From Psammoneis japonica (lineage: Eukaryota), in contig QPGO01000013.1 in NCBI GenBank assembly GCA_008632985.1, positions 620,001-684,000 of the forward strand: a stretch of DNA of 64,000 nucleotides, in the 5' to 3' direction. The stretch's first letter is position 1, and each line of letters opens with the position of its first letter. Under the pieces are notes generated by a model. That model did not search any database. It was not told the origin of the DNA and saw nothing but the letters and a program-made list of their open reading frames with translations. Made by a program: the position numbers and the translations under genes. Below, piece after piece: positions 1 to 63,677 of the stretch.

Positions 1-2884
1 TTTTGCTGAAGTCAAGTGCACCAAAGTTGTTTGATGCTGACAATGGGAGGGCACAAGCAGTGCTGCACATGATGCCATTCTTGGGCTGGACAAAAATGCA
101 CTCTGCTCCTTGTTTGACCATGTGAAACTTGCAGAGTCCAACAAACAGAGTGGTGATGGTTTGCAGCATGGAGTCAAGTGTCCAGGAAGCACCCATGCCT
201 GAAGACATGGTGAGAGTTTGAACTTCAATTTTGACATGCACCATGCAAGAGGGATTGTGTCACAGCAGCAGCAGAAAAAGGCATTCTGTCAAGGAAGTCA
301 AGAACAGAAAAAGAGTGTGCAGGCCAGTTTGGTCGACAACTCCAGTGCAGGCTGTGGCCTGCAGTGAGTGGGTCCAGCCTCTCCTTGAGGAAGTGCAGCC
401 TTGCAACACAGTGACTGCCAAAGAAGAGAAGGAGCAGGAGCAAGAGGAGAAAAGTGAAGACAACAAAGTCTCAGAAGAGAGCACAGTTGAAGCACTGTCA
501 CAGCCACCAGCAACAACAACCAATGAATCCAGATGTCCAGAACTTGCCAAACTGGTCACCCCTGGTGTGATCTTTGACAACAAAGCAGCAAGTGCCTGGC
601 AAGGTGCTGGAGCAGGTGCTCATCAACACAAAAAGAAGGATGCTGTGCATGGAGAACTCACATGTGTGGTCCAGAACAAGAAGTGAGCAAGGTTGCTTGT
701 GTTGCCAAATGCCACCAACAATGACAAGCTCCAAAATGCTTTCTTCAAGAAGACTGTCATGGAGAGCATCAGCAGGAGTTGAGAGTGGCTGCAAGATTGT
801 TGCTGAGTTCACCATTGGACTCATGTCTGATTGCAAACCATCAACAATGTTGGCCAGCACAAAGGTCCTAAAAACAGATCATGTCTGCAACCTGATGGTG
901 CTCTAGACACCAGGGTGACAAGGAAGACTGTGTCTGTGTCTTGTTGCGCCCAAGCTGGCAAAAAAGGACCAGCTGGTGGCCCACTCTGGTGTGCAGGTGT
1001 GAGCACAATGGCTGCAAATGTCATCAAGCAGGCCATGCTGTGGAGAGAAAGACCTTGGGCTTGACTCTCAGAAAAGAAAAAGGGCAACACTTTTGTGAGC
1101 AAGCAGGAGACCACTTGGGGCACATGCTGGGGCTCACTGTGCTGGCTTTGTTGCATTGCAGCTGGAGGGAGAGAGCCAGGGGAAGTTTCACATTGCTGCA
1201 ATCATGAAATGCAAGGGGCAAGCATGTGATGCCATGAAAAAACAGTGGTCACATTTGAAAAAATTTGTTGCTGTGGTTCAGAGCTGAAATGTGCTTGACA
1301 AGAAGCCTGTGTTTTGATTCAGTGCTCATCCTTCATTGCAAAGGGGCAGCTTTTTGCAATTGACCAAATCAGCAAAGTGGGAAACCAGACTCAAGAAAAT
1401 TTGGTGTTGCAGCAATGTGTGGGCTCTTGACAAAATGACCCCTGCACTGGCAAAGCAGCAGGAGACAACAATGAGTGAAACATTCTTCATTTCTGTGCAC
1501 ACACATGGTCAGTTGTTTTGTTGCTCATTGGCTGGAGCATGCCAACAATTTGATTTGTTCATTTGTCAACTGTGGTGCACACTTTGCAATTTTGCTCTCT
1601 TGTGATGTTTGCTTCTGCCCTGGCAATGTTTGGCATTTGGTGCATGCTCTTGTTTCATGCTCTCATTTCATTGACTTTGCCCCCTCTTTTCTTAAGACAT
1701 TGTCCTGCCACCTCTTGCAGTCTGTTCTGCATCTCAGTGTTCTTGGCTGTGCTGCTTTTCATTGTGTGTGAGATGCAAGACAGCAATCCCTGACAGAAGA
1801 CAGCAGAGAAGTTGTCAGTTTGGCACTTTTTGTTTGGCAAGCATGGCACAATGCTGCTGTTTCTGCTTGCCTGTGTGCAGTGTTGCAGCACTTTGTTTCT
1901 TGTTCTTGGCTGTTTTTGTCAACTTGTCTGAGTTTCAAGAACAAAAAAAGGCAAAAAAGTGTCAACTTGTTTGTTTGCCACAAGCTTCCTGCTCCTTCGT
2001 CACACTTCTGACCTCTCACCTTTCCTGCAGCTTTTTTTTTTGTCAGTGTGTGAAGAGTCCTGGTTTTTGTCATTGCTTGTGTGCTGCTTGGGTGCACCCT
2101 GTGTTTGAGTTGTTTTGTGTGGCTGTGATGTGCCTTTTTTGCCATGGAGCTGAGCCAGTCAGCCTGGCAACCATTGCCTGTGTCATTTTTCAAGTGGTCA
2201 TTTTTTAAAAGCATTTTTGTCACATTTGTTTTTGATGTTTAGAGTCCTTTGAATCAACTTTTGGCAGATGAGTCATTTCACTGGTCTTTGTTGATGATGC
2301 ACCTCATTTGTGGTGGGGTTGTCATTTGTTCACCAGCTGCATGTTGAACATAATTTCAGACAGATGCAGCACATCTGTGTTCAAAGGAGACTGATGCCTC
2401 AATTTTTATGATCTCAGCTGGCTCTTGTCAAGAGTGAAATTTTCAAATTTGTGCTGGTCCACATGGCTTGTTTGTGTTTGCAAGACCACTGCTGTCACTT
2501 GCAGCTGATCTTTGCAACCGACCCAGCACATGCGCCCACAACAACCTTTGGTGTTGCTGCACTCTTGTCATGGTTGAAACTCATGGGCAGGAAGTCAGAA
2601 GAGGTCATGAAGTTGGTCACACAGGTGGTCGTGGACAAGGTGATTGTGGAGCTGGTCAAGCAAGAGGTCAACTGGTCTGGTCCATCCACGGTGCCAGGTG
2701 TGTGGGAATTGCCAGCACACAGCAGCTCCCAGAGACATGAGACAAGGGGGGCACTGCAGCTGCAGCACCTCCTGCCAATGTTCCTCCTCCCAAACAAGCA
2801 GCTGCACCATGTGCCAATGCAATCATGCGCTGTTGTGGCCCCATGTTGCCTTGTCTGTGACAGGTCATGGAGCAGACTTGTTCA

Positions 2885-3800
2885 GAGTGAAGGGGCCTCA
2901 TGATGGCGCCACCAACCAAGCCAACAACAGCAGGCGAGGGGCGCTGGTGGTCTCTGGTGGATCCCAGGTGACATTTCAAGAGCTGTGGTTGAGCAATGCA
3001 AGGCCAGTGTTGTGCAGTTGTGGCACCCTGTCGTGTCCTCCAAGCCAGAACAAGCACACTTCAAACTCCCAAGAACTCCGAAATGAAAGGACCCCATGAT
3101 GGCAGGCGCCATCCAACCCAACAAGAACTGCAAGCTGAGGAAGCTGGTGGTGTCTGACAGACCCCAGGCAACAGCCATTTTAAGAACCATGGTTGAGCAT
3201 TGCAAGGTTTGTTTTGCAGGGTCATGACCCCATGCCACCTTGACAGCAGGAGAGCAGACTTGAGTCTCCAAACTCCACAGGGAAAGGATCCCATGATGGC
3301 ACCAATGATGAACCTGACCAAGCTGAGGGTGTTGGTGGTCTCTGGTGGACTTCAGATGAGACTTTGAGAACTGTGGTTGGCCGTTGCAAGGTTGATCTCA
3401 GGTGTCATGACCCCATGTTACCTTGTCCCCCCAGCCCCCAAAATGGCAGCAGACTTGAACTTTGAACTTCTCTAAACTCCAGAGTGAAGAAAGGGCCCCG
3501 TGATGGTGCCAACAAACCCAACAACAGCAAGCTGCAGGCACTGGTTGTGTGTGGTCAACACCCCCAGGGGACAGCACTTTAAGGAGCATGGCTTGGTTGG
3601 GCAGTGCATGGCCTGTTTTTGCAGTTGTGGCTCCCTGTCACACCATCCTCTGTGCCAGAAAGAGGCTTCAAACCCACAGCTCCATGGTGAAAAGACCCCA
3701 TGATGGGGCAGACCAACCCAACAAGAGCAGGCTGAGGACATTGGTGGTGTCTGGTGGGTGCCAGGGATCACTTTAAGAACCACAGCTGAGCAGTGCAAGA
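2885..3800. repeat. Degenerate tandem repeat, unit about 200 bp, about 5 copies
   Basis: The motif ccatgatgg...aaccaac...gctgagg...tggtggtctctggtgg...actttaagaac recurs at about 2892, 3089, 3286, 3493 and 3693. Confidence 0.75.
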
Positions 3801-6349
3801 CCTGAAATCAAATGATGGAACCTTGTTTTTTGAGCTTTTCTGATTGGGCCAGCCCCACTTTTTTGGCTTGAATTTGCCAAAATGGCTTGTGATTTTTGCA
3901 AAAAAAAATTTTGCCACACTTGCAACGTGGCAGCTGTGGCAATTTTGGACAATTGAGGTGAGTGCAAAGGAGGGAGTCCTTTCACCAAGTCTTGTTTGTT
4001 TTGTGTTCCTTTTGCAGCATCAAAGGTCAGATGGGCATCAAAAGTTTGATGGCACCCACTGCACTTTGCCACACATGTCTGCTTGCACCATCAAGATGCA
4101 CCCATGTTGTGGTGCACATGCTGCGTTGCTTCAGCTTTTCAGATGAGACAAAAAATGCTGCCAAAATGAAAGACACAAAACAAAAAGGCTCTGCAGAGTC
4201 ATGACAGGGGGCAAGGATGGCTGAGAAGAGGGCACTTTCAGCCATGTGTCTCACTTCAAGCCAGAAGTGATGCTGACTGCTTTGTGGTTGACGGCACTGC
4301 TGTGTGGAACCCAACCATGTCAACACTTGCAGAGTGTGACTTTCTTGTTCAGGCATGTCTTTTCTTGTGATGACTTGCAGGGCTTGCAAAGATTGATGGG
4401 AGGTGCAAGAGATGTGTTTTGAACATGAGCAAATTGCAACAAGAGTTGGAGGTTGCACTCTTCAGATCTTGCTTGCTCACAATGTTCATCACTCAACTGT
4501 TTTGTGCATTGTCCATGCCTTGGTTTGCTGCACAAGAGGAAAAAGAGCAAGCAGGCTCATGCAGGGAAGGTTCAATGCAACAAAGTGCTCATGTTGAAGA
4601 ACCCAAGAAAACAATGGTGGTTGATGATTTGATGAGCAGGACTCATGCACTTCAAGCAATGCTCAGGTCTCCACTTTGCCCAGCATGGCACCAAGATCTC
4701 ATGGAGTGAGCTCAAAGTCATTGTTTGCTCCAGCTGTGTGTTGTGTTTTGCAGGTTTTGTGCAACATCCAGTGGCTGCTGTTTGCAGAGTTGTGCGTGGG
4801 TTAAAGGTTTTGCCCAGCTTTGCCAGAGGTGCAATTTTGCAATGGGTGATTGCTGCAAGCACTGGAGATGGGCACAGTCCAAAAAATGTTTGATGACATT
4901 TGGTGCATGTTTTGCTCTGGTCTTCTGACAGCATGCACAGCATCTGCAGCAGTGCAGCCCCTGGAGCCTTCATCACTTTGCATTGTTTCTCAGGCCATGC
5001 GCTGATCTGGGTCTGACTTTGCAGGCAAGCTTTGTCTCTCCATGAGCTGCACAATGAAGTTGAGTGCTGTGCACCCATGCATCCTCACGCAGTTGCTTGA
5101 CTTAAAGGACAGCCAATGTGCTGGCCTTGTTCAAAAAGGAAAAATGACCTGTTGAAAAGATGGGTCATGGCAGCACACAAAGAGCAAGCCCCAACTTGTT
5201 CACAGTGGGATGGTGAGGTCAAATTGCTCAATCATGAGCATTTGTGGCAACAGGAAGCATGAACAATGACAGAGACCAAATGACAACATGATGGCCATTG
5301 TGGGGGCTGGCTGCTTTGCATTGTGAATTGGGAGCAAGAGTGCAAACTGACATGGCAGGTGGAAGGAAAAGGGCTCAAGTTTAAAATTGTGCTGTCTGTC
5401 AAAAGGGCTTGGTTCAATGAGGAGCTCATTTTGAAAAGAAAGTCTTTTATTGTCATCAGACATGCAGCCAGGACACAGTGGATTGTGGCAGGGGGGTGCA
5501 CCATTGTTGTTGAAACAATGGTTTGTTGGTGGCTCAGTTGTGTGGGGGTGTCTGATGTGACCAAGAGACAAGTGCAACAGAAACACAGAAAGAACATGCA
5601 GCGGGCAACTGAAGGGAAGCATTTCCAAACAAATGAGTCAACTCTGAACAAGATGCTGTGCTGCAAAACATTGCAAATCTGTGACCACTGAAAAAATGAG
5701 CTGCCAACCTGAAGATGATGACTTTGGCAGTGCCAGATTTGTGGCTGAGAATGAACAAGCAGCAAAGCATCATTTGGAGCTGAGATGACAGAGAGCACCT
5801 TGGTTTTGAAAAAATGTGGTGCCTGTGGAGAGTGCAATCAATGTGCTGCAACATTTTGTTTCTTGTTCATGAGTGGTGGGCCATTGATCTTCTTGTGAAG
5901 CACAAAAACATGTTGCAGAGATGCATGCCTCCAGAGAAAGCTTGAAACAGCTTTGGGTGCTGGCTGTCACAGAGCTGCAAAGATGAGGCTGTGCAGCAAG
6001 CAGCAGCATCAGCACACCAAAGCAAGTGGCTCTCTGTTCCTTGACAAGAACAAATGCCAACTTGTGTGCTCTCACACAACGTCAAGGCTGAGAACAAAAC
6101 AACAGCACTCAAGAAGGATGGTGGGCAAGATGGGTCAGTCCAACAAAACACAAACTTGCAATGCCTGTTGTTGCTTCTGGTTCAATGCTCTTGGCTGCTG
6201 AGAAAAGCAGCATCATGCTGCACAACACCTTTCTGTTGGCAACTGGCAATCTCTGTCACAGTGTGGTGTTTGGCAAAGAAGGCATGCCCCTGCACTGGCG
6301 TGCAACAATGTCAACATTTTAGCATGCAACAGTCTGAAAAAGCATCCAA

Positions 6350-7460
6350 CAGAAGCAGAGGTGGACATGTGGACACAAGAGGAGCTCCAGGAGTCTCTTG
6401 AAGCCTTCAATGATGAGAAAAAGAGCAGACTGCCTTCTTGTTGGCCCCATGAGCCAAAGGGTGCCATTTTGTCAGTCTTGCACATGGTGCATCTGGGACT
6501 TGCCAAGGACACTTGGATGAGCCAGAGGACTGGCCACAAGACATGGCCCCACACAGTGATGAGGATGAGGAGTGTTGAGGACACTTGTTGGGAAGTGGCG
6601 GTTGACCATCAGATGCCATCCACAACCAACAGAAAATGAAAACTTGCCAATGTGGTGATGAAAGAGACAAAGGCTCAGTGAACCAAGGCAGCCAACATTC
6701 CTTTTTAACATCAGTGCAGTGCTCCTGAGATGACACAGGCAATGCAATGGAAAGGTTTGAAGAGTTGTCAACAGACACACTGCAAGAGTTGCAACAAAAA
6801 GACTTCTTTGGGGAAAGAGCTGGAAGATGTGATGACCACATTGCAGCTGAAACAAAACAAGGACATCATCAAGCACACCATGAGTTGGGGTGCACCTTTG
6901 CAGAGGATGCTTGCCATCACTCCACTGAGGAGGCACTGAAGCAACAATGCATGTTGCCAATGGCCCTCATGGAGTGTGCTTCATTGGTCTGCACATCAAG
7001 ATCTCAGCAGCTTGGTCAGATGACCTTGTGGGTCAACTTGCAGAGAGAACCCAAAGAGGTGCTGCCGTGAGGCTGCTTGTCCAAATGACATTGATGAGAA
7101 ATGCACTCCCAAGCAAAGCAACTCCTTGCTGTGCTCCATTGCATCATTGCTGCACTGACAAACCAAGCACCACATTGATGGATGAAAAAATCCAGAAACC
7201 AGAGAAAAGAGCAGCAGCAGAGCTTTCATTGTGCTGAGCATGATGCCAAAACTTCACTCAAAGCAGAAGGAGAGGGTTGCATTGTTGCACTCTAACTTGG
7301 CAGCCAGCACCACAATGGCCACACAGATGCACAACATTGACAAAACACCTTTGCCCACAAAGTTCTTTTTCAATGGATCATGTCATCTCAGAGTGGCTGC
7401 TGCAGATGCACACCTTGCATGTAAATTTTCACACTCTGGAGACACCCATTTTCTTTTGTG
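6350..7460 (+). mobile_element. Possible piggyBac-like DDE transposase relic
   Basis: Fragments HGVCFIGLHIK..ERTQRG (about 6965-7060) and DAHLACKF (about 7405) resemble my recollection of stramenopile piggyBac-like motifs (GLRFIGxxKT, DAYLAYKF). The region is heavily frameshifted and no TIR was seen. Confidence 0.3.
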
Positions 7461-7736
7461 CAAATGTCCAACCAGCAACATCTGCCTGAGTGTGCCAACA
7501 TTTTTCATGCGCACAGTGTGCAACCAAAATTCCCTTGTTGATTCTGAACTTTTTTGCACAGGAGTTTTGACCACATTTTGGCCCAAATTTGGTGCTCGTG
7601 GGACCCAGCCAATCTTGCAGGACCCAGCCATTGTCCTGACATTTCCATGTGAATGTTGTCACCAGACATTTTGCGTGAACCAACAGCAGCCAAAACCATC
7701 ACTCTCTCTTTTCTTGTGATGTCTTTCTTGTCTTGT

Positions 7737-7761
7737 CCCCCCCCCCCCCCCCCCCCCCCCC
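7737..7761. repeat. Poly-C tract (25 nt)
   Basis: Seen directly. Confidence 0.9.
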
Positions 7762-7829
7762 ATCCCAAGATGTTTCATCTGACACCCAAATCCACAAATC
7801 ATTGGTGGCTGTGGCAGCAAAAAAGAAAT

Positions 7830-8310
7830 GTTGCCAATTGCCCCAACTCTGGTTGGTCCTTTCTCATTTTGCTCTCAGATTGTCAGTCAAGTGAGGGGAA
7901 AGCATGATGTCTGCCATGGCAAAGGCAGAATCACACAACCCTTGTCAATGCTGAGGACAATTTTGCAAATGGAGAGGCTGCTGTGCCTTTGCCTCTTTTC
8001 CAACCAGTCTGTCACAGGAGACAGGAGACCATGAGTGGGACAGAGGGACAATGTTGCTCAAGGCAATCCTTGAGGTGCTTGCAATTTTTCTTTTTTTCAT
8101 GGGTTTCTGGGACTTTCTCTGGATCTTTTGAGCAGTGTGATTTGGTGCCCATGTCCTCTGCTGCAGCTCAAACATCAAATGTGGCATCAGCAAATTGCCT
8201 CCACCCCAACCGCATGCCATGGTGTTGCCCCTGTCACCATCTTTTGACTTCCTGAGGTTTCTGTTGACTTTGGCATGCTTGATCTTCTCACTGTCATCTT
8301 TTGAGGAGCT
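7830..8310 (-). mobile_element. Second, truncated CRE-like LINE fragment (RLE endonuclease region)
   Basis: 8060-8300 aligns by eye with 10005-10232. The two regions give parallel translations (GGGNLLMPHLMF..SRIALSNI versus GGGNLLMLHLML..SRLVWANI). Confidence 0.7.
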
Positions 8311-9799
8311 CCTTGCATTGCACAATCCCTTGCAGCTCCGCATCATTGAAGGTTTTGGTGTTGTGCTGATCAGATGCAGCACTCCCTTGACTGGTTTTCA
8401 GGCTGCTGTCCAGGAGTCACTTGGTTGATTGAATGAGCACTTCATGCTTTCCTGCACCCAAATCATCCATGTGTTTGATGAGAAATGAGCAAATGTTCTT
8501 GGCTCCTTTTGCCTCTCCACACCTTTGTCCAATCACTCTTTGATGTGCTGCAAGCATTTCCAAGCTCCATTTTTGGTCGACAACCCCATTTGTCAGCTCT
8601 GCAGTTGATTTGATGAATCACTGAGACAGACACAGGGTGCCAGCTGGTGCCAATGGCTTTGTCAAATGCAGTCACCCTCAACTCTGTCATCCAGATTTAG
8701 ACTGGCTGTCACACTTCATGCGCATGACCACCACAAAGAATGCAGTCTGCTTCAGAGCTGAAAGCCCTGGGTGGGTTCCAAGGGGCAGCAGCACCAACAC
8801 CCCTCTTGATTTTCCTCCATTTCCCTGTCAGTCTGACTTGGCTGGCAGCTCTTTTTCCCTTGAGGCAAGGTTGATCTCGTCCTCACCATTGTCACTCTCA
8901 ATGATTTCCTCTGCTTGTTTCTTTTGAGTGTGTTGTCCTTTTTGATTGCCAGAAGTGTTGCGGCATTCTTTTTCCTGCTGTCACTGGGTGCTGGGCTGTT
9001 GATGACTTGGCAAATGATTGGATTGGTGGGCAGGTGGAGATTTCAGGGAGACTGAAAGCTTCCACAGCTTTTCACCCGTTGTGAGTCCTTTCTTGTTCTT
9101 TCATTGCTGGAAGCAGGTGAAAGAGTGGCATGGTTTGTTGCTGCTGCAGCATGGACACCCATGCATTTGACCTGTTGGCACAATTGTGCAACCACAGCAC
9201 TTGCCAATTGTTGCTCTTTGGTGTTTGGCTCTTCTTGACATCAACCCAAAGCAGCACTTGAGTCTCTGCTTGTGCTCTTTTTGCAGGGGGCTTTGAGGGT
9301 GTCAGATTGAAGCTGCCATGGTCTCCTGTGCCCCATGTTGTTGTCACCCAACAGGGCCACCGGGTTTTGGTGGGTGATGTCACTTTGTGCCATGCAGTGC
9401 CAAATTGTTCAACTTTCAAATGAGTCAGTCACATTTGAATTTTCTCTCAATTCTCCAGCCAATGAGACAGTTTTTGAACAAATTCTGGGAAAGAAAGGGG
9501 CTCCAACTTGTGCAGTGTGTGCACAGCCAAAGCCACCAGGGTGCAGATGAAGTTGGTGGAATTGCAAACAGGTGTGGGGTTGCATGCCACCCACAATTGA
9601 AAGCAGTCATTGTTTGTGTGTCATGTGTTGTGGCATTGATTTGAACAGTTTTGGGGTGGACTTGTTGGCAATGCATGCATGCTTGTCATCACCAATTGGT
9701 GCTCATTCAATGATGTTGGCTCTTGAGCTGGTGGAGTTGGAGGGATGAGGAGCTGGCTCTGTGGCCCTCCCACATGGGGCGGCACTGGCTCATCTGACT

Positions 9800-12050
9800 G
9801 GATGGACCAACAAAGGCAGAGGTGAGCAGTGCATTTGATTGTGGCACTCATTTGGGCATTCACAAAGCCACATGCCTTGGAGTGTGGCCTTTGCCACTTG
9901 TCCAAGATCTTGGCTGCCATTGTGTGCAGCACAGCCCCCAACTCTTTTCTGACCAATCCATCAGAAGTTGCCATGAATGGGGTGAAGTGTCAATGTTGGC
10001 CCAAACAAGCCTTGAGATGCTTGTGCTTTTTCTCCCTTTTGTGGGCTTCCAGGACTTTTTCCAGATCTTTTGTCCTGGATGGTTGGGCATCCATGTCTGC
10101 CACCCCAACATCAAGTGCAGCATCAGCAGATTGCCCCCACCAACCATGCACCAGAATGTCACCTCTGTCACCACCCTTTGACTTCCTGAGTTTCTTGGTG
10201 ACTTCAGCTTGCTCATTGTTCTCAGCATCATCCAAATGAACTTGTCATTCTGAGAGATGACTGGGCTGCTGGCCTTTTTGACACTCCAGTGCATGTTGCA
10301 TGGAAATTTGTGCTTGCATTTGTCACACTCTTGTGGCAGATTAGGAGGTGCTGCATTGCAGTGCATGCAGAGAGCATCACAGAATTCTTGGTGGGACAAG
10401 CAAGTGCTGCTTGCAAGAAATGGATGGATGGTCAGCCAAGCTCCCATTTGGGTGCTTCTCTGCATGGCTCCAGCTTTTTCATCTGGCAGAGCATTGAGAA
10501 TGTTGCAAAGTTCATGCTCATTTGTGACATGGACTTGCAATCCTGGAGTGAGGGCTGGACTTCCTTGGAGTGTGCCAGCAGACTGCCAATTGGAGCTGAG
10601 TGCAAGTGCTTGGCTCACAATTCCCCAAAGCAGACTTTGTGGGACAAGGGATGGAAAGTCTTGCACATTCAATGGACAGGGAGGGTCATCCAGCCTTGTG
10701 GTCATCTTGGCTCAGCAAGTTGTTGAAAAGTGCCAGAAGAAAACAATGCACAATTGCAGCCTCAATCTTGGCAATTAACTTCTTCACAACACATTGGAGA
10801 CACTGCTGCTCATGCCATGAACCACATGTGCACCATCTGAGGGTGCTTGGCTGCACAACTCAGCTGGTCCTTTGATGACACCACCAGCCCACTTCTCAGA
10901 CTTCTCTTCCATCCTCTTTAGAAATTCTTTGTCCTTGCCAATGAAACTGCAAAGGTGTGTCTGCTTCCAGAGGCAGTGGTGAAGCCAAGATCTCCAAAGC
11001 AATGATTTGCTGCATCCAAGAAGTTGTGACTGGAGATGACTGAGATGTTCTTGTCATTGTCAGCTGGGAAGCATCTGACTCATGAACCTGGCTCTCTTGC
11101 AAACATGGAAAAAGTTCTCTGATTTGTTCAAACACACCAGCAGCTGCTGAGTCATCAGCATGCCATGAGGCAAATTCTTTGTTCAGTTGCCTGTTGCCTG
11201 ACTGGCAGGAGAAGACCCAGTCTACAAGCAACCACCACAAGTGGGTCACTCCACATGACAACCCTTCCTTGCTGAATGAGAAAAATGCCACACCAAAGCA
11301 TCCTCTGTTCACCAGGGCACTCCAACATTTGGGCACAAGGGTCAGAGATGCTTGACATTGTGTGGTGTCAGAATTCTGTTTTCTCCTCATTGAAGCTGTT
11401 GAAGGCATTGATGAAGAGAAGCCTGAATTCATCTTTGAATTTGTGCTGCTCCCAAAGGAGATCAACTGCATCAATTCCTCCCTTGATGCCTGCCTTGAGG
11501 CCAGCAGCACAAAATTGGTCAGCTCCACAGATGTCTTTGACTTCTGAGCCAGCACAAACCACCATCGCAGCTTCTGCACAATCCTTTGCCAGATCTCACC
11601 TGTGCCAGCCAGCCAGACACCTGGATTTGGGTTGAGAGCAAGCAGACATTTGGCCATGAGAGCGCGGCAGAGCCAGCCCATGGTGTCCAGTTTGTGAGCC
11701 TCCCAAGTGCCTCTCTTGGGAGTCCACTGGCATCTCCATGGCAGAGAAGCCAGCTTTGGTTTGTGAGCCTCCCAAGTGCCTCTCTTGGGAGTCCACTGGC
11801 ATCTCCATGGCAGAGAAACCAGCTTTGGAAACCACCTTGGCGATGGCTGAGCCAGCCAAGTTTGCCATCACACCCAGGTGGGGGCATCTTGCTGCTTTCT
11901 TCTCAACAGCACCATCTGAGACTGGCATGTCTTGGAAGTCTGGCAGCTTGCCAAAGTGTCTTGAAAGTGGGCTTCTTCTGGAACCCCAGCTTCTGGATGC
12001 TTTGCCAAGAGGACATCGCGTGGTGGGCTGGATCCTTGGTCTTGTCCGCA
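9800..12050 (-). mobile_element. Decayed non-LTR retrotransposon, CRE/R2-like (RT, zinc knuckle, restriction-like endonuclease)
   Basis: Motifs in order: LLALNPNPGVWLAGTGEIWQR, GADQFCAAGLKAGIKGG, LLFINAFNSFNE, SKEG, WHADD (for WYADD, 11165-11151), GAWLT..LSHQEFCDALC..PPNLPQECDKC, RGDILVHGWW..DVGVADMDA..EKKHKHLKAC..DGLV..KWQRPHS. Many frameshifts. Confidence 0.85.
11691..11828. repeat. 69-bp direct tandem duplication inside the LINE relic
   Basis: 11691-11759 and 11760-11828 differ at one base (gaagcc versus gaaacc). Confidence 0.9.
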
Positions 12051-12866
12051 AACCCGCCCGGGGATCGAGAGCCCCCCTTTTTGGCTGTTGGCTGTGCAGT
12101 GTGCTGCCTCACACAAGTTTCCTTGCAGCACCACACAGTCAAAGGCTTTGATGTGCTGGTCAGATGATGCGGCCCTTCCTCAGCTGGTTTTCTGGGTGCT
12201 CTCCTCTGGGGAAGCCGTTCCGCGGGTTGGACAAGAAGCAGCTCTCTTTCCTGCACACCCCAGTCATTCTTGGCACCTTTTGCTTTTCCATCTTGCTGCA
12301 AAGTCACCATTTGAAATGCTGTGAGCCTCTCCGAGTTCCACGTCTGCCGCTGGGTCGCACATCGCATTGCTGTGTCTCGGGTGGGGCACCAGCCGTCCAG
12401 ATTTGCGCCGTCACTTTGATGCATTATCCGCCTGATCACAAATCCCACCAGCAGAGATAGAACCCTGCGAGAACGCCTTGCAGTTACAGTATGTACAGTA
12501 CAGCACATGTTCCACAACATTCAAAATATCCATTTTTTTAAAAGAAAGGAAACATCTCTGCTGCGATACAAAGGAGCTAAACAGCAACCATTTATTTAAA
12601 TGCGCTGGCAACGTTCCATTATGTACTATACGCCAATGATGATTTGATCTTGATTCAGGAACGACGTGTTTTGCGACCTGCGACTGTTTTTCGCGATCGC
12701 AACGGTCACATGATGATTCGATTGATCTATCAAGCAGCGTTTTCGCGTTTGAGAACTCACAATTTGAAGAGATAGTTTACATACAGTACTGGTAGTTCTA
12801 GTAGAGAGTGTGGGCGTGAGCAGAGTACTCTGAGACATTCTTCATATTATATCAACTCGGGCAATC

Positions 12867-17345: not shown

Positions 17346-17471
17346 AAGTTGAGCAACAGCTGGCTTGCTAGTAACTATTTATTGTGTTTTCTTATTATTG
17401 TTAGCAGCGGTACATTATCTCGTTCCCTTTTTTCTAGCATTCTTTTTTCTAATAATAGCATTTGTCCTTGT

Positions 17472-19189: not shown

Positions 19190-19336
19190 TAAACAGAAAC
19201 AAGACGAGCTGACGAGCATAGCATCCCACATGGTAGTATTGGGAAACGTACAGAAAAGTCGCTGTTGTACAAATATTTACAAGCAAGACTTTGTCCAAGA
19301 TGGTTATCCTCTAAATACGCATCATCTTTTTCTCAA

Positions 19337-35004: not shown

Positions 35005-35319
35005 GGTTGAAAAAGATACAACAATGTGTGCTGTCGTGGCGATAGCGTGCATGCGGAAGAAAAAAATGACCGAATGACCTACGCATGGAATGTACGGAAT
35101 GCCACGTAGAAAGAGTTCTCGCACAGAAATTCTCGTTTTATTTCGAAACGGCGTTTGTGCTGTAATGTGCTCTGCTCAAGCTATCTGTCTGTCTATCTGT
35201 CAATCTATCTACCTCGGCAGCAAGGTTGCTGCACTCTTCATCATCTCAATAGTTTGTTGATTTCTTGTGCTGAAGAAGGGTTTGCCATTGAAGAGGTTCA
35301 TGCTGCCTGTTATAAGTGG

Positions 35320-36340
35320 CAAAGTGTGTGGTGTGTGGTGCGACACTTTGCTCTTGGCTGCACACGCTCAGAGGCAACCCCGGCTCACTTGGCTGTGCCC
35401 AAAAAACACACCAGTGCAGCTGTCATGGTCAACCACATGATCAAGTCAGCAGGGTGGCAAAAGGAGTGTCCACTTCACATTCATGCTGCAAAGGTGCAAC
35501 AAGAAGTGATTGTGAGAACCTCCCCAGAGCACGTTGTCGGTGGGGTGGCTGCAATTTCGTGCACCACCCTCTCATGACAACCAAACAATCGATGGCAAGA
35601 GCTGACAAGAGCTGACATGAAATCAAGACAATTTCTCATTGCTTCCATTTTTGCATGAGTTGTTCCTTGGAACTTCCAGAGAGAATGACGTAGACAACTG
35701 CCATTTCCACAAACTTGTTTGCCCCCCCCCCATGTGTTGTGCCCAGTTTTGGATCAACCAAGGTGACAGCATTCTAAGTCTAAAAGGGTTGAGCAGTTGG
35801 CAATTTAAAGACACATGGTTTGTGCACAATGGCACTTGCTTCTGTTTGAGCAGATGTGCAGCACATCTGAGATGACCAGTCATTTCTGCTGCCGTGCTTG
35901 TTGCTCAGCTCAGGTGCTGCCTGGGCAAAAGGAAGCCAAGACCAGCACATCTCATCATGTTGGTGCTGTTGGTGCGCACCTTGGGATGCAAGTTGGCTGC
36001 CATTTCACATCTGCCTTGCCCTCATCAACCCCTCAACTTTTCTGTCATTTTCCAGCACATCTTTGCTCTCAAACTTTGTGCTGTTGGTCATCTTCTGTGA
36101 TGGTGAGGACAATGAAGAGTGAAAGACTTGTTGCTCTGGAGAGCAGGAGCAGGCCCTGCTGTTCTGGTTGTCTGTGGATGCAATGTCACAGATGGCCAGA
36201 TGCTCAATGAGCAACTGTGGGCACCTGCACAATGTGACAAGGATGAGAACAAATCCTTTGTCAGAGCAAGACCAAAGTCTTGTTGATTGCCACATCTTTG
36301 TTCTCTTTGTCCAATGCTCAGCTGCGTCTCGGTTGCATTT
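35320..36340. other. Hypermutated block 2 (TpA/CpG-depleted, origin unidentified)
   Basis: Same dinucleotide signature as block 1, lying between two intact genes. Confidence 0.8.
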
Positions 36341-36541
36341 TCTCAATGTACTGTTTCTTTGAGTCGGATGGACAGACGGATCCAACTCTCGTCGAACCAA
36401 AAACGAACCTTCTCCATTCCCGAGCAAAAGAAGAGACCTTACCTGATACATGATGTGTAGCTACAATTAGATAGCAATGTGGAGCAATGCATCTCTCTAA
36501 ATAACCAACTATACGTCTAAACAAATACAATGCGATGGGTC

Positions 36542-39529: not shown

Positions 39530-41855
39530 AAATGAGGCAACAGCACGTCATCCTCCATCTACACCGCTGCTGTGAACGACAAGCGCCAGGGACCTTCGTT
39601 TGTGGAAATCGGTGCTGCACTCATAAAGAAAAATGTGGGTTTGTGTGCATTTCATTGGCTGAAATGCGGTGGCACGTGCGAACACATCTGTTGTCGCCGC
39701 TGCAAACAACATCGCACCACTTCACTCATCATTTGCATTGAATCTGTTCTTTGTTTGTGCAGAAAGCATGGCATCATGTTGGCCTGTCTAGATGTCAATT
39801 TCATGGAAGCAGAGTCATGTGTCATTGGGGATGCTGGGTTGACACAATGATTTTCTCTCAACAAGAACGAGAAAAGCAACAAAGCAAGAAGAAGCCCGTT
39901 GACTCGGAGGGGCTCGTTCTCATGATGGCATCATGAAAAAACAAAAAGGCCTTGACTGTGAGGCAATGGACAGTGGGATGATGTCACATTTCAGATGACA
40001 CCTTCTTGTGCACAATGAATGAGCCAGCTGAAAACACAAATGTCTCCTCTTCACCCTTTCTTTGGTCACCCCACAGCCGGTGGCAGCCTTTGCCATTTCT
40101 GGGCCTGTGCCTTGTCACTCAACAATGCCAGATGTGTGTGATTCCATCAAGGCATCCATTGATGAAGCCAGCCAAATCTGCGCCAATTGCCGCATGTGTG
40201 TCAAGAGTGTCAAGTTGCGTGGGACATCATTGAAGAGTTGGAAGCTGCACAAAGGCATTGTTGCTGGACAAAGCACTTCAGCAGTTTTTTTTCAACATTG
40301 GACAGTTTTGACATTGCAGAATGCATGGACAGACAATGGTTGAGACAATCAATCTGCTCAAGATGCCAAAAATTCAGACCAAGAGAAGATGATGGGAGTG
40401 TCATCTGAAGATCCCAACAACCTCGTTGAATCCTTGGAGCAGATTGGAAGGAATTTGGGCCGGAGCAGCATTGGGTTGAACAATGATGCACACTGCACTG
40501 CATGCACCACTTGATCACAGGTTGGGAGACATGTCTGGACAACTGCTGTTCGAACAATCTTGCACAGAATTTGCACTGGAGAACAGTCTGTCAATCAGCG
40601 CACTTGGGGCATTCGGGAAAATTGTGTGAGCAGAGGACAGACTCTTCCTCTGTTTCACACATTGAAATTGCACTGACAAATGCCGTAAATTCACAGATGG
40701 ACAGAATTCATTTGAACAGCAGCCATCCAGACACGTCTCCCATGGTGCATTGAAGAAGCACCATGAAGACCACTGCACAGGGGACAGGTGGGCGGCGTGG
40801 GGCAGTGAGACGTGATGGATGCTTGAGCACCTGTCGAGAAAAGACACATGACTTGGAATTGAGCTGCACTCACATTTTTGTGGTGCACACCATCCATTTA
40901 ATTGCAAATTGAAAACAATGGGCTCCATTGACCCTGAGAGACAATCAATGTGGAAAGCACTTGAGCAGTTAGAAGCTCACAAATTCCAAAAGAGCACTTC
41001 ATGTGATTGTCAAAACTTGCTCACATTCTGGCAAAGATTGTTCAACAAACCCTCTCTGTTTGTCCTTTGCTGACACTTTGATTGTTGGCATTGTGTGCCA
41101 GCAAGCTTGTGGGCTCACAACTCCACTTCAGCAACTGCCACACTGCCCCCCTGATGAGCAAGGGTGCACATTCAGCCACCGACTGTGCATTCTCACTTTC
41201 TCTCACATCATGGCACCAGCATTGATGAAGCAACCCATTCCATCAAGAAATTTAAAGATCTTGAGTGCAGCTTCATGGGTCCATTGATTGGTGCAAGGGA
41301 TGACGAGCCTTTTGAACGAATGTGAAATGTCATGTTGAGTGTCAGGTTGGGGATGCTGTCCGACGCTTTGCCTTGCTCCACCCCCGACATTGTGCACGAC
41401 CATCCAGAAAGGGACAAGACAAGTGCATCAATTGCATCAGCAGTGCCACGCACCTGCATTCAACACAAGATAACGCACCTTTGTGGCAAAATGGTTTCAA
41501 AACTGACACGCACGAAACATGCTGCTTTTGAAAGCTCAGCAGCATGCATTCACGACAATGATGGTGCGTTGCCACTTTTTTGTCGGTTGCTTCTTCAGTC
41601 TGTCCGCTTGCAACTCTTCTTGATGTGGTCGACAACACACATCACATCTATGGTTCTCAAGACGATGGAAAATCTTTCACCAATGATCCGATCAATGTCC
41701 CTCTTCAGCATGTCGTTGATGATTCGGTCGTTACGTCGCGTGCGGTAGAAGGCAAGTGTGACAATCCCGACTCGTGTCGATGTTTGGATAAAGAAGAATA
41801 CAAGCCAAGGACGAGACAAGGCATGGCGGCATTCTACGGATTTGGTAGCAGGTAA
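39530..41855 (+). pseudogene. Hypermutated block 3: decayed gene whose 3' end (about 41640-41855) retains normal composition
   Basis: TA is depleted over 39530-41640. The reading frame ..HHIYGSQDDGKSF..FYGFGSR* continues out of the block. The 5' part is duplicated at 44887-45482. Confidence 0.55.
39590..40187. repeat. About 600-bp diverged direct repeat, copy 1 (copy 2 at 44887-45482)
   Basis: Shared colinear blocks: tttgtggaaatc.gtgctgca, gatgtcaatttcatggaa, ttttctctcaacaaga, tgtgaggcaatggacagtg, tcactcaacaatgcc, ccaaatctgcgccaat. Confidence 0.9.
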
Positions 41856-44127: not shown

Positions 44128-44389
44128 TCGATGTGAGAAAAGATAAAATGAGATTAGCATGAAGCCGGTAAGCAAACCACACAGACATCATGCCAAACTC
44201 CAGTGCACGTACGTAGAATCCTACGGGGTAAAAATGGCGCGAAGAATGATCAGATTGGGATACTTCCGGGTTATCGTAGCATCAGAAGAGCAACAACCAA
44301 CGCACTGAGCGCACAACGTGGGCCACATGCACATGGCCGCCTGCGTTTCCATACAGCGAAGCGCCGTTTGAGTGCCACACTGTAGCTTT

Positions 44390-46326
44390 CAATGTGATGA
44401 GGCTTCTTCTTCATCACTGATTGGTCCCTTGCAAGGTCACAGTGCAGTGGTGGGGGTGTCAAGCAAAGATGGAGGAAATGGCGCTTGAAGTTAAAGATGC
44501 CGTGTGATCAGATGGCATGTTTTTGACTGGATTTTTCGACTGACAGTTGGTGCAGATGATGGCAATGTGCACACAAAGCATGACTTGAAGCAGGCACTTG
44601 GAGGAGGAGTCATAGATGACAGGATGACAGCTGGCACATTGCTGGTTTGGTGCTGCTGGATTGATGTGGCACAACTGGCGCAGTTGTCAACGAGACATCG
44701 GAGCACCTCATGGGAATGTCAAGAGGCAGCTCTTCTCTGAATGTCATTGATGGGTGTCACTCAACAAATCATGGGATTGAGCAGATTGCAATGGCTTTGC
44801 TGCGTCATTTTGTGGTCAGGGCTGCCACTGCTGCAGTGAACAACAAGCGCGCAATTGCACATCCGCGGCCATTGTCCTCACTTGCAGGGTCTTTCATTTG
44901 TGGAAATCAGTGCTGCATTTGCAATGTGATGTTTGGATTTGTGTGCATTTTGTTGGCTAGAATGCAGTGGCATGCAAGCCAATGTGTTGTTGCTGCTGCC
45001 TCACTTGTCATTTGTGGCAAACCGTTCTTTGCTTCTTGTGCAGAAAATCTGACATCATGTTGGCCCATCCAGATGTCAATTTCATGGAACAAAATCATGT
45101 CATTGGAGACTCTGGGTTGACAAAAATTTTCTCTCAACAAGAGTGAGAAAAGTGATGAAGCTTGTTGACTTGGTGGGGCTCATTGTCATGATGACATTGA
45201 GGAACAAGAAGGCCTCACATGTGAGGCAATGGACAGTGTGGAACAATGCTGCACCTCAGATGATGGCTTGCACACAATGAATGTGGGCACATTAAAAACA
45301 AAAAAGCAACACAAAACCACAAGGATCTCTTCTTCACCCATTCTTTACGGTCACTGCAACTCCTGGCATGGCACAGCCTTCTTTGCCATTTCTCTGGGCC
45401 TGTTCCTCATCACTCAACAATGCCCAACTTGTGTGATTCCATTGAGGCAGCCATCAGCAAAGGCAACCAAATCTGCGCCAATGTCCCCAAAGGACAATTT
45501 CCCTCCATCTGACAATGATGCATTGGTGCACCATGCCAAGGAAGGATGGGAGCACATGAAAAAAGCCCAACAGCTCATGGCGCTGCACCCAAAAGAATGT
45601 CTCCAGGATCAAGCTCTTGCAAATGGTGAACAGATCATGCTCTGAAAAAAGGCCATGGGCACTGCCTGGCAAAGAACCCACACCAAGTCTCCATTGCACA
45701 TCCCTGCAAATCTTCTTGTGTGCAGACCAATGCAGCAAAGGGTCCAGCCTGCCAAGAGTCATTTTTGGATGGTTTCATTGAGTCTTCTGTGGATTTTGTC
45801 TGATCAGCGAGAGCCAGCTTGCAGCTCAGCTTGGCTAGATCATCAAACAGTGCTGCACGCAACATGGAACAACACTGGTTCATTTTTGATTGCAAGTGGG
45901 GTGTGCTTGGCAGCAAGGCGACACAGAGAACAAACAGCGGCATGTGCAACAGAGCAGGAAGGATTCATTTTTGATTGCACTTGGGGTGTGCTTGGCAACA
46001 AGGCAACGTAGAGAATGAACCGTGGCTGTTTAGACAAGGTTGGGTGAAAGATGTTGCATCACCGAGGGCTTGGACACATTGCAATCCCTCAATGGTGACA
46101 TCGTGGCTTGTTCTGATTTCTGTTTGGCAAAGGAAGATTCGATCCTGACCACTCCTTTGTTGTGGAGTCAGCGCATTGCTTGATGTTTGAACATTCTTGC
46201 TCAATGGCCTTTCGGACGTTGTCTAACCCAAGTTTTAATTGCTGTTCCAAGGATTGCCAAACTGTGCACTGGAAAGAATCTCACAAGAAGACTTGTGTCT
46301 GGCGACAAAGGCCGAAGAAGAAGTAG
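44390..46326 (+). pseudogene. Hypermutated block 4: MYND-zinc-finger gene relic
   Basis: 46240-46326 reads CCSKDCQTVHWKESHKKTCVWRQRPKKK*, matching the MYND C-terminal half YCSxxCQxxHWxxHKxxC with Y->C. Upstream sequence is frameshifted and TA-depleted and contains repeat copy 2 (44887-45482). Confidence 0.7.
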
Positions 46327-47688: not shown

Positions 47689-49749
47689 GACGCTGTGTTC
47701 TTCTTGCTCAGTGTTTTCGTCGTGTTGTTGGTTGTTGTAACAACAGAGAACAGAGGGGATATTCTACGACTAGCTAGCGACTACGAGTTGCTATGCTCGA
47801 ATACACCTGACAAAATGCCGGTTGAACTGAGAAAGTTCGCCGAAGCTGGCAGATGATTTTCGACATGGGCGTTTATGCTTTTGAATAATGAAAAAATGGG
47901 AATATGAAGGATAATTATTTGACACACACATGAATGACGTGTGAATGAGAAGGAATGAACATCTTCAAATCGGATGTCAATATAAAACTACTGACGGCGT
48001 TTTGCACACCTACCTACCTGCCGCTGCTGCAACATCCGTCCGCTCCGACAAAATCCCAAAATCCACAAGAGAAACGTCACCATCCCGCCAAAGCCCCCCC
48101 TCGCCCTCCTCCCGGTCTGCCTGCTCCTTCTTCCCCAGTTCTAACTGAGGCACACACCATGCGAGTGCGAGGTCAAAGTTTTTTGGACCCACTGCCTCCT
48201 TTTCCGATGGCTCCCTCACCATTCAGTCTCTCAATGATGGCAGGGTCTTCCTCCTTCCTTTTGCTGCAAATCACCTCGGTGGTCTTGGTGCCTCCCTGGC
48301 CCTGGCCCGACTCCTCTCCTGCTTTCCAAGGCTCTGATCCTTTCTGCCTCGCCTTTGACCGCGCTCTCTCACTTTGACCGCTGCTCTTGGTGTTCTTTTC
48401 GTCAACCAGCTGCGCTTGTTGCGATGGCATCTCAGAGCTCCTCTGAGCAGTCAATCCACCGGCTCTGAGGCTTGTGAGCAGCCAGGAAAAATTGTCGAGC
48501 TGCTGCCCTTTCTTGCAGCAAAGCATCCTCAAAGCAAGGTGGTGATGCTGGGCTTGAGGACAAAAATGCCAGGCCGCTGAGCATTGTTGGCAGCTGTTGC
48601 ACATGTTCTCAATGTGCGCTTGCCCCTTTTTCCATGTTGCTTGCACGTGTTTTGCAGCTTTGCACCAGCGGGCTGCCATCTCGTCAAACTGCTGTGACAA
48701 AGCAACATCTGGGAAATGCACCACCAGTTGAGCATTTCAATCAATCCACAAGGAAGTCTGTTGGGGAGCAAGCTCAAGTGTTGCAGGATCTGGTGAAGAA
48801 CAGCATCATCTCTTGTCAACTCAGCACTGTCCTGGCTTTTTGCCGCATTTTCCAAGAACCGCGTGCATGTGACAAAGTGCACTGTGATTCTCTGGTGCAC
48901 CACTGAGCACCTTCAGCACTGACAACAAGACCTCCATTTGGTCTTGCCATCTTCTTGTCAGTGCCAGAGGTGCCCAGCACATTGGAGGCTGCCCCACCAC
49001 CAAAGCAGCTGCTGCTTGGTTGTGGGGCAGGGTCATGCACACTCAGAAGTTGACGTGCAGCACAGCACTCACAAATGGCAGATGTCAGCACATGAAGGTC
49101 AGGCACAAGGTGCAGATGCATTGTCCATTGTGCAAGCTCACACAACTCATGATGCATGCCCTGCCAAGCAAGTGTGTCAACACAATGGCGCGCCACCCAC
49201 AAGCAAACCTTTGTGTTGCCAGGATCCCCCATTTGGATGCCCCCCAAAGCCAAGCCAAGTGAACAAATGCCAAACACCTCATGTGCAACAATCCATGTGT
49301 GTCACACAGCACTCTCAATGAGAACCAAGATGAAGAGGACTTTGCATGAAGCCTTTTGTTTGAGGATGGAAATTTTCAAATGTGCGCACAAAGTGAGCAC
49401 ACAGTTCACACAACTGAACACTCCTCAGCAAAACACACCAACTCAAAAACAACCTCACATTTGTTGTCAACAGCAATTTTTGCAACTGCCTTTAAATTCT
49501 TCATCAAATTTGGTGCACAAGGCACAGCATGTCTCTCCTGAAAGTCTGCTCAGAAACCTGCCAAAATTTTCAAACACCATTCAGCAACACATGCTTGTCA
49601 AACCACCCACAACTGCAGCTGTGAAGAGGATTGCTCCTCCTGCTGTTCCCCTTAAATGTCCTGAGAAAAAAGAGCTGCAGAAAGATGAGTGTCAGATGCA
49701 TGACACTCCATCACTGACAAAAACAGCCCAGTGCACAGGGTGAGTGTGT

Positions 49750-54300: not shown

Positions 54301-54909
54301 CCAGTGTTTTGGACAACATTGGCATCTGTTTGCTCTGTTGTTCATGTTGCTCTCCTGGCTGTGTTGGTGCTGCTTGGTTTGGTGGCAGAAAGGTGGTGAG
54401 AAGTCAGCCGGCATGTCAAGGAGTGTTGTCTGTTGTGTGGCTGCTGATTGACAAGAGCAGTGCTCCAGCATTTGGACCACTCGCGACAGACTTGGCTGGC
54501 CGTTTGGAGGAAAGATGCCTTTGCAGTTCACCCCCTCTGTCATCTTTGGACTCTCAGATGTTGAAGTTGTCATCCTTCTTCTGTGATGACAGAAAAGCAT
54601 GAGCACCATTGCACAGCAGTGTTCACTGGAAGTCTCTGTTGTCATGTCACGGCACGATCCAACACAAACTGAGGCCGGCTCATTCTTCGTGGAATGCCAA
54701 GCAACTGCTCACGATTTATTGGTCTGACCGTGACACGTGCAGAGCTCAAAAGCGGTCTAGGATGAAAAGGAGAGAAAAGACAGGAGGTGCTCCAGCTCAC
54801 TCACATCATCTATTCTTTCTTCTCTAAGTATTTTTTTCCTAAACTGTTCTTTTGTATGCTGGTGGTAGCTCTGAAAAAAAAAAAATCACGCAAATCACGA
54901 ACTGAAAAA

Positions 54910-63200: not shown

Positions 63201-63677
63201 CAATTCATTTTTGTTCTGTTGTCGAGGATTTTTTTGTCACCCTCCAATCCATCATGTGCAGCTTGTTGTCGTGCAGAACTGCGGGTTCGCTCACCACCCA
63301 CGCATTTTGTGAGGTTCACTTCCTGTCACAAAATGGACGCAATGCGACACTCAAGGAGTCTGAATGGCTCATAGAGAAGTGAACTTCACTCCGCGACACA
63401 CTGCACGGACGTCGCTGCCTGTGCGATTGCATTTTTCGTGTCTGGCGCCATTACTGTAGGGCCCTACTCTAGCTAGCTAGTGTTTGTGAGAGGTTCACAC
63501 TTCACTCGGGACTGACTTTTGTACATTCATTGAAAAGATTCAGACATGAAGGATCTTTATTATCGCAATCAGAACTTCCCCCCAACCCCCCACCCGCATT
63601 CAATCAACTCACCCTTCACAAGACAAAGAACAAGAAACAAGAACTGCCAAAGATGATTCACCTTTCAGCATGACACC

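Follow-up and report, generated by a model that had tools for sequence, protein, structure and literature searches.

Surviving TpA sites in six TpA-depleted blocks of Psammoneis japonica DNA are biased to YTAR, pointing to context-dependent, locally targeted hypermutation

A 64,000-bp stretch of Psammoneis japonica DNA (the window; assembly GCA_008632985.1, contig QPGO01000013.1, positions 620,001 to 684,000 of the forward strand) contains six blocks that have lost nearly all of their TA dinucleotides (TpA). The TA that survive in these blocks lie mostly in the context YTAR (Y, pyrimidine; R, purine), and the context RTAY has nearly vanished. Context-dependent, locally targeted TpA hypermutation is very probably the cause of this bias. 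The blocks were located by dinucleotide counts per kb and per 300 bp along the window (Table 1), and together they hold 83 TA in 26,405 bp, compared with 1521 TA in the remaining 37,595 bp.

The flanks of the surviving TA were counted block by block. The region 860-11230 in block 1 contained exactly 25 TA, among which 19 were YTAR (TTAA 10, TTAG 5, CTAA 3, CTAG 1) and none was RTAY. YTAR made up 3/4, 4/8, 5/8, 12/21, and 9/17 of the TA in blocks 2 to 6, respectively. When the six blocks were pooled, 52 of 83 survivors were YTAR and 3 were RTAY; all three RTAY were in block 6, and the five fully converted blocks held none among 66 survivors. In comparison, the YTAR share was 15% (235/1521) in the window outside the blocks, 23% (78/338) in DNA outside the blocks and outside open reading frames (ORFs), and 21% (370/1770) in the non-ORF DNA of 22 loci from other diatoms. 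These loci came from a metagenome scan, in which a single-protein query found no relative and an alignment query gave the 22 loci. The excess of YTAR was highly significant (binomial P from about 1e-13 to 1e-14). An earlier reading, made from the letters alone (the sequence-only reading), had already reported 19 YTAR among 25 TA in block 1. This count is exact in 860-11230, and the TA positions cited for it match when shifted by one (869, 904, 1693, 3181, 4802, 5103, and 10776). The ratios it gave for block 5 (11/18) and block 6 (8/13) are close to the 12/21 and 9/17 found here, and the block limits differ. It had put the chance expectation at about a quarter and had reasoned that an equal YTAR share in unmutated intergenic DNA would speak against a preferred target; the share in the blocks was 63%. 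The count of all 16 NTAN tetramers (N, any base) inside and outside the blocks, which it had proposed, showed a strong flank bias, and all 16 could be fitted.

The positions two bases away from TA matter too, which goes beyond the earlier reading. The hexamer TYTARA held 22 of the 83 survivors (TTTAAA 9, TCTAGA 5, TTTAGA 4, TCTAAA 4), compared with 169 of 9046 TA (1.9%) in unmutated DNA (odds ratio 19, P = 8e-19). Within YTAR only, the corresponding numbers were 22/52 for survivors and 169/1515 for unmutated DNA. Among the half-sites of the survivors, TA|AA was enriched 4.4-fold and TA|GA 3.2-fold, but TA|AT was not enriched. The resistant half-site is TA-R-A, and the split between Y and R is a simplification. 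The surviving TA might not be resistant at all: they could be new TA that arose once a single ancient event was over, or sites maintained by selection, such as a functional TTTAAA or TCTAGA. The blocks are old enough for about 8% transversions between repeat copies (47/564), so some back-mutation must occur. However, TA arising from the blocks' own CA and TG would yield 22.6% YTAR and 6.3% TTAA, and the observed shares were 63% and 29% (P = 7e-15). TTAA sites are common to diverged repeat units, which argues that the survivors are old and not new, and no RNA family or protein domain was found on the survivors. We consider it very improbable that the survivors are new or selected sites.

The survival of TA was analyzed with a two-strand model, in which each TA is lost by a hit on either strand and the rate is set only by the base 3' of the A. 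Proxies for the ancestral sequence served as baselines, either the mostly coding rest of the window or the non-ORF DNA of other diatoms. Relative to the density outside the blocks, survival was 0.67 for TTAA, 0.32 for CTAA/TTAG, 0.13 for CTAG, 0.06 for GTAA/TTAC, 0.054 for ATAA/TTAT, 0.048 for CTAC/GTAG, 0.037 for ATAG/CTAT, 0.013 for ATAC/GTAT, 0.009 for GTAC, and 0 for ATAT. With the outside-window baseline, the fitted rates were 0.23 for a following A, 0.94 for G, 2.32 for C, and 2.59 for T, and the likelihood-ratio test against a single rate gave a chi-square of 128 (P = 1.6e-27). With the non-ORF baseline (29 kb, 2108 TA), the rates were 0.90, 1.20, 2.17, and 2.98, respectively, the likelihood-ratio statistic was 84, and the fit was good (Pearson X2 6.5, 12 degrees of freedom, P = 0.89). 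The model reproduced all 16 NTAN counts with a rate order in which T and C were about equal and above G, and G was at least equal to A. The contrast between pyrimidine and purine is robust.

Survival by itself cannot separate YTAY->YTGY from YTAY->YCAY, but product counts can. In the CG-poor cores of the blocks, steps with Y..Y flanks gained about 331 TG and about 118 CA, while steps with R..R flanks gained about 126 TG and about 364 CA. In the zones depleted of TA only (block 6, 12000-12300, and 48000-48900), Y..Y flanks gained 55 TG versus 10 CA, and R..R flanks 1 TG versus 34 CA. The count of YTGY plus RCAR against YCAY plus RTGR, which needs no baseline, was 1567:1102 (1.42-fold) in the cores and 246:166 (1.48-fold) in the TA-only zones. 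The same ratio was 1.00-1.02 in unmutated DNA (1517:1494 in the rest of the window, 5740:5728 for the 22 loci), and it was raised in each of the six blocks (1.18-1.54). The data showed that the base beside the susceptible flank changes: TA-Y becomes TG-Y, which is R-TA becoming R-CA on the opposite strand. The preference for TAY->TGY (equal to RTA->RCA) that the sequence-only reading had inferred is backed by the survival fit, by these product counts, and by the codons of a pseudogene in block 6.

In the survival and product data, A->G in T-A-Y and T->C in R-T-A are indistinguishable, being one event seen on opposite strands. An attack on thymine, with T->C in R-T-A brought about by thymine modification (e.g., a 5-hydroxymethyluracil:G mispair) or by biased T:G repair and with no adenine deamination, would fit the survival, the product direction, and the tyrosine codon changes described below equally well because of this symmetry. 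Very-short-patch (VSP) repair of E. coli depletes CTAG toward CCAG/CTGG, and 5-hydroxymethyluracil of dinoflagellates sits preferentially in TpA. However, the VSP precedent hits CTAG most, whereas CTAG is relatively spared here (survival 0.13, compared with 0.009 for GTAC). We know of no thymine-modifying system in diatoms, and the authors of a preprint on the chlorarachniophyte Bigelowiella natans favor an ADAT2-like deaminase for a like process, although only from a candidate gene. We regard an attack on thymine as rather unlikely.

TG and CA alternated randomly within the blocks (z from -0.98 to +2.03 in a runs test), and there were no strand patches. RNA A-to-I hyperediting, of an ADAR-like or fungal ADAT-like kind, followed by reverse transcription and insertion would share the 5' U preference that is typical of ADAR and ADAT-type editing (B. 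natans preprint, bioRxiv 10.64898/2026.01.13.699255). However, editing of a single RNA strand would leave A->G on that strand alone, whereas TG and CA are randomly mixed here and both His and Cys replace Tyr within one gene. ADAR prefers a 3' G, and in the blocks TAG is, on the contrary, several-fold more resistant than TAY. In addition, the TA-free margins reach in place beyond the CG-free cores. An origin from edited RNA is thus scarcely credible.

The composition of the blocks was compared with that of the rest of the window. In blocks 1-5 (23.7 kb), the observed/expected ratio (o/e) was 0.04 for TA, 0.13 for CG, 1.83 for TG, and 1.86 for CA, compared with 0.60 for TA, 1.00 for CG, and 1.21 for TG/CA outside the blocks. 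TG plus CA was roughly doubled in all six blocks, and the balance of the cores was about 815 TA and about 1120 CG lost versus about 891 TG and about 896 CA gained. AT fell (0.81) and GC rose (1.26) in the blocks, which agrees with the product direction through ATA->ACA and GTA->GCA. The target A has a 5' T, only TA being lost: AA, AC, AG, and AT were not erased, and AA o/e was 1.20 inside the blocks versus 1.09 outside. An error-prone polymerase of the DNA polymerase eta type (WA->WG; W, A or T) should lower AA too. The comparison with this polymerase, proposed in the sequence-only reading, was made, and its signature was not found; we hold such a polymerase to be extremely unlikely.

The edges of TA depletion are sharp. 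Block 1 has its final TA at 11223, the following one comes at 12425, and at 60612 the TA density drops from about 30 to about 2 per 300 bp within tens of bases. All six blocks adjoin genes of normal TA content. CG reappears within the TA-free margins at 12017, 54409, and 48022-48682, which indicates that TA loss is the wider or faster process and that CG loss is separable from it.

The loss of CG was analyzed separately. CG was low (o/e 0.13) together with the excess of TG/CA, CG in one repeat copy corresponded to CA or TG in another, and Arg codons CGY had become TGY or CAT. This is the pattern of 5-methylcytosine decay at CpG, and CG loss is probably ordinary decay of this kind. Such decay would account for the CG->TG/CA half of the block pattern but leaves TA untouched, and in the window CG loss lags TA loss, being absent from the block margins and mostly from block 6. 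The CG surviving in the CG-poor cores of blocks 1-5 were concentrated in GCGC (28/115; e.g., at 35975, 49385, 50651, 53572, and 7510), often within TGCGCA or GTGCGCAC. Survival of GCGC was 0.49, compared with 0.05-0.11 for all other NCGN. Unlike TA, GCGC followed no per-strand multiplicative rule, as survival of GCGA/TCGC was only 0.046.

Repeat copies in the window differ mainly by transitions, and TG/CA double differences were found at 41 of 245 aligned YR steps. The copy at 39587-40187 retains CG and TA where the copy at 44885-45482 shows CA or TG. Duplication is found in parts of the blocks, as seen from pairs in the window and from variant contigs: many further contigs of run X1 with 80-95% likeness stack up over 1343-3356 and 5602-5621, reaching 35 at a single site, and at 1880-1904, 31-35 different X1 contigs carry another letter. 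Parts of block 1 therefore belong to repeat families, while most of block 1 had no extra contigs at 80% likeness or more.

A frameshifted pseudogene in block 6 made it possible to examine the mutations at codon level. Algal UDP-glycosyltransferases were placed by tblastn on 63169-61262 in four pieces with two frame changes, and the first piece had an E value of 3e-53 (query P0077). The homologues carry PF00201 and PF06722 and were found by an Atlas lead followed by full HMMER; the named UDPGT relatives are from Triceratium, Thalassiosira profunda, and Chromera. For the 325-aa ORF at 62345-63319 (minus strand), the word-indexed homologue search found nothing, but full HMMER and tblastn found relatives, so a blank from the word-indexed search is no evidence. 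With the Pfam limit relaxed to E up to 10, six ORFs of block 6 yielded no more than a faint hint of EryCIII-like_C (E = 0.16). Columns were taken as conserved when at least 70% of at least 10 homologues agreed. Conserved Tyr was kept in 1 of 10 columns and was replaced by His (five), Cys (three), or Trp (one), compared with retention in 109 of 157 columns for the remaining conserved residues (P = 3e-4). Of 11 columns with conserved Arg, five were kept, three had become Cys encoded by TGY, two His encoded by CAT, and one Val. A 112-bp direct repeat lies in the same block (61698-61809 and 62037-62148); its copies differ by 10 transitions and 0 transversions, and the differences include CCA versus TTG and TGG versus CAA, as if both C's of CCG/CGG had been converted.

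The pseudogene also bears on the possibility that the blocks were poor in TA and CG from the start, as foreign or viral DNA moulded by dinucleotide selection, and did not mutate in situ. Many viruses suppress both CpG and UpA, and for most of the block sequence no homologue was found. However, nine of the ten conserved Tyr of the pseudogene have given way to exactly the TA->CA/TG products, and of the other conserved residues 109 of 157 are intact. Where copy B of the repeat has CA or TG, copy A still has CG and TA. TG/CA double differences dominate between the copies, and we know of no natural suppression that comes near a TA o/e as low as 0.04. An origin of the blocks as TA-poor DNA is highly improbable.

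For the flanks of the Tyr codons, 11 columns were used, each covered by five or more homologues of which no fewer than half had Tyr. The His codons derived from Tyr followed a purine in four cases and a pyrimidine in one, and the Cys codons followed a pyrimidine in three cases and a purine in none, so that 7 of 8 fit the expected direction. In a looser set, the purine/pyrimidine numbers were 5/1 for His and 0/4 for Cys. His (T->C) and Cys (A->G) products occur within this one gene, showing that both strands were hit. The sequence-only reading had claimed that Tyr became His after a purine and Cys after T. The direction is seen in the block-6 homology, but the examples given from block 1 lack homology support: the strings WHADD, KHLKAC, and RPHS and their codons are present on the minus strand at 11151-11165, 10005-10022, and 9879-9890, respectively, but nothing shows that their His were Tyr. 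The ORFs that contain the three strings matched no Pfam family. For the ORF holding WHADD, Atlas gave no family either, and its recognition of 869 is typical of non-protein sequence, so that the earlier reading as reverse transcriptase-like is unsupported.

Several observations weigh against hypermutation with this flank rule. The gap between A and G depends on the baseline, shrinking from 0.23/0.94 to 0.90/1.20, and survival and gain both rest on proxy baselines. The codon test is weak alone (Fisher P = 0.14 for the strict set and about 0.05 for the looser one). Tyr after a purine gave four His and no Cys, where about 2:2 was expected, one His follows T, and one YTAY Tyr codon survives at 62800. 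Among 16 TG/CA double differences with conserved flanks, five were R..R, four Y..R, seven Y..Y, and none R..Y, the class that the simple model expects. No viral or transposon Pfam domain was found in any block, so a foreign target is no more than possible, and the one identifiable block is a host-type gene. No 500-bp window with TA o/e below 0.15 was present in the 22 loci from other diatoms (146 kb). Finally, run X1 may be the assembly's own data and would then be no independent check against systematic read error, which leaves some room for a sequencing or assembly artefact. The X1 contigs (word depth about 60-80) match the window with 0-1 differences per multi-kb piece, in blocks and genes alike. 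Moreover, the pattern respects gene edges, and the frameshifts and indels are typical of real decay. We give an artefact hardly any credence.

The coordinates of the features are collected in Table 1.

Table 1. Blocks, repeats, and other features in the window
Feature	Position	Strand	Remarks
Block 1	1..12424		runs off window start; 25 TA in 12.4 kb; CG near-absent to ~12016
Block 2	35314..36348		4 TA, 3 of them YTAR; CG-poor
Block 3	39561..41731		8 TA; CG kept at both edges, depleted mid-block; left 600 bp is a repeat of 44885-45482
Block 4	44384..46223		8 TA; CG-poor
Block 5	48016..54716		21 TA counted in 48000-54600; CG fades from ~48900, back at ~54409
Block 6	60613..63371		17 TA, TA o/e 0.11; CG largely kept, o/e 0.65; adjoins TA-rich 60250-60612
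Frameshifted UDP-glycosyltransferase pseudogene (UDPGT / EryCIII-like_C)	61262..63169	-	frames -1, -3, -3, -1
Surviving TTTAAA (example)	2204..2209		
Diverged tandem units, ~200 bp	2680..3830	+	TTTAAG kept in 3/5 aligned units; one TTCAAG, one TTTGAG
Repeat paired with 9971-10232	8029..8298	+	70% identity; 13 TG/CA double differences
Repeat copy A	39587..40187	+	paired with 44885-45482, ~70% identity; first 300 bp still CG where copy B has CA/TG
Repeat copy B	44885..45482	+	same element as 39587-40187

Six-frame read-through of 1-12300 and the 82 block ORFs matched no Pfam family above cut-off; a CP12 match in one block ORF (22.4 bits, cut-off 22.7) was treated as chance. Rfam gave nothing at gathering score, Tandem Repeats Finder found small arrays only, and tblastn queries with 149 ORFs, drawn from the window and from the 22 loci, matched nothing in the blocks. 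The rest of the window is gene-dense eukaryotic DNA, in which Pfam identified a kinase with cNMP-binding and EF-hand domains, CRAL/TRIO, ankyrin, DUF6604, and IgGFc-binding/peptidase C13 proteins. The named relatives of the DUF6604 protein are all diatoms (Thalassiosira, Cyclotella, Cylindrotheca, Nitzschia, and Skeletonema; 45-48% identity), and its closest relatives have 65-70% identity; these names point to a diatom or a near ochrophyte relative as host. Over the genes at 14959-20000, contigs of run X2 had spliced joints; they barely covered block 1, which was not counted as evidence of silence. They skip 17638-17714, 18167-18456, and 19048-19135 (ends CT..AC, equal to GT..AG on the minus strand); X2 behaves like RNA, and the skipped stretches are introns of minus-strand genes.

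Some further features of the window were recorded. The stretch 60250-60612, against block 6 and upstream of a 1771-aa gene, is extremely TA-rich (32 TA in 300 bp, including TATATATATA). The 1771-aa ORF (54910-60225, minus strand) has internal repeats with a period of about 216/432 bp and 64-83% identity and a PT-repeat match, and GC skew is +0.24 to +0.33 across 55-60 kb. Tandem 66-bp repeats (88-93% identity) lie at 13084-13512 within the 1053-aa IgGFc-binding/peptidase C13 ORF. A 69-bp unit is tandemly duplicated with 98% identity at 11690-11828, in the TA-free margin. The read contigs are interrupted at 7737-7761, where 25 C follow one another.

The blocks combine dinucleotide specificity, a flank hierarchy, a product direction, action on both strands, sharp edges, and a mutated, once-coding gene. 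We propose that they are silent non-genic DNA, in which decayed repeats lie together with one or more dead host-type genes and perhaps foreign DNA, and that a locally targeted, strand-symmetric hypermutation drove them near saturation. It would change A:T to G:C at TpA only, giving TG or CA, with the decay of CpG to TpG/CpA superimposed. The A of T-A would be converted fast before a pyrimidine, several times slower before G or A, and slowest in TA-R-A. As either strand of a TA can be hit, RTAY would be erased and TYTARA palindromes such as TTTAAA and TCTAGA would persist. The agent may be a DNA-acting enzyme, most likely an adenine deaminase of the ADAT2/TadA type, and for this assignment we see the chances as evenly balanced. 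A bolder and doubtful proposal is that one deaminase, or deaminase system, erases both self-complementary YR steps, through A in T-A and C in C-G, in silent or foreign-marked DNA. It would recognize a half-site of four bases, with T-A-Y fast and T-A-R-A and G-C-G-C refractory, and would be an ancient DNA-editing genome defence shared across stramenopiles, alveolates, and Rhizaria or even across eukaryotes, with an enzyme that could be identified by its motif.

DNA hypermutation at TpA only was first reported in 2026, in one chlorarachniophyte, and the enzyme was not identified. The window presents a like footprint at saturation in a diatom-like stramenopile, which suggests that the process is not limited to one species. 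Beyond the main text of that preprint, the window adds a flank rule (TA-Y far above TA-G, TA-G at least equal to TA-A, and TYTARA nearly immune), the product direction, the erasure of CG, and a host-type pseudogene as target. The flank rule offers a biochemical fingerprint for candidate deaminases, glycosylases, or thymine modifiers, and the published 231 de novo mutations of B. natans could be re-examined for it. The blocks also carry two warnings for annotation. They yield long false ORFs rich in Cys, Trp, His, and Gln, because the stops TAA and TAG vanish, and they hide pseudogenes from word-based homology search, which missed the UDPGT relative that only full HMMER found.

Known systems resemble the blocks to different degrees. 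Fungal repeat-induced point mutation (RIP) likewise brings transitions on both strands close to saturation in non-genic or duplicated DNA with sharp limits; it has dinucleotide specificity and knocks out genes. However, RIP changes C to T mainly at CpA and thereby creates TpA, whereas TpA is destroyed here, which is the opposite direction. RIP was rejected, as TpA is almost absent and CpA/TpG is doubled in the blocks, compared with the rise of TpA under RIP. Diatom DNMT4 is reported to be related to fungal RID, with its function open (PMC9998398). VSP repair of E. coli resembles the blocks in turning a TA palindrome into CA/TG through T:G mismatch handling, but its victim is CTAG, which here, above all as TCTAGA, is among the best survivors. 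ADAT2/TadA enzymes are adenine deaminases able to act on DNA, as in the TadA-derived base editors, and in their natural substrate a U lies 5' of the target A (tRNA U33-A34). Amphioxus BjADAT2 expressed in E. coli was reported to prefer DNA adenine in GAA and also to deaminate C in TCG (PMC10354150). An agent of the ADAT2 type is plausible, yet this published GAA context does not match the TA-Y of the blocks.

The closest likeness is to B. natans. Two integrated viral regions took up 231 of the 302 new mutations in its mutation-accumulation lines, at a rate of about 6e-7 per site per generation, about 1000 times background; with one exception, these mutations were A->G or T->C, and they lay at TpA (bioRxiv 10.64898/2026.01.13.699255). 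The preprint also reports that its genome contains 124 clusters depleted of TpA and enriched in CpA plus TpG, with mostly unannotated ORFs, and that the large target region is single-copy and silent, and it proposes an ADAT2-like deaminase (bioRxiv 10.64898/2026.01.13.699255). Our literature search found no description of TA->TG/CA hypermutation besides this preprint. Its main text contains no trinucleotide, tetranucleotide, flanking, context, or CpG wording, and its supplements may bear on flanks. The two cases differ in several respects. The host there is a chlorarachniophyte, whereas the named relatives of two gene families here are diatoms; the blocks are saturated, with TA o/e 0.04 compared with a Rho of 0.45 for the B. 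natans region of nucleocytoplasmic large DNA virus origin; CG is erased here too, and CpG is unmentioned in the main text of the preprint; and one target here is a host-type pseudogene, while no viral domain was found in the blocks. In both cases, as far as the preprint's main text goes, mutation is restricted to TpA, with TpG or CpA as the product on either strand, and stays within discrete regions next to normal genes. Over the long term it leaves a like footprint, consisting of TpA-depleted, CpA plus TpG-enriched clusters whose ORFs mostly cannot be annotated. Repeats are not required in B. natans, since the target there is single-copy, and most of block 1 is likewise without extra copies at 80% likeness or more. 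These likenesses lead us to infer that the process in the window is of the same kind as that measured in B. natans.

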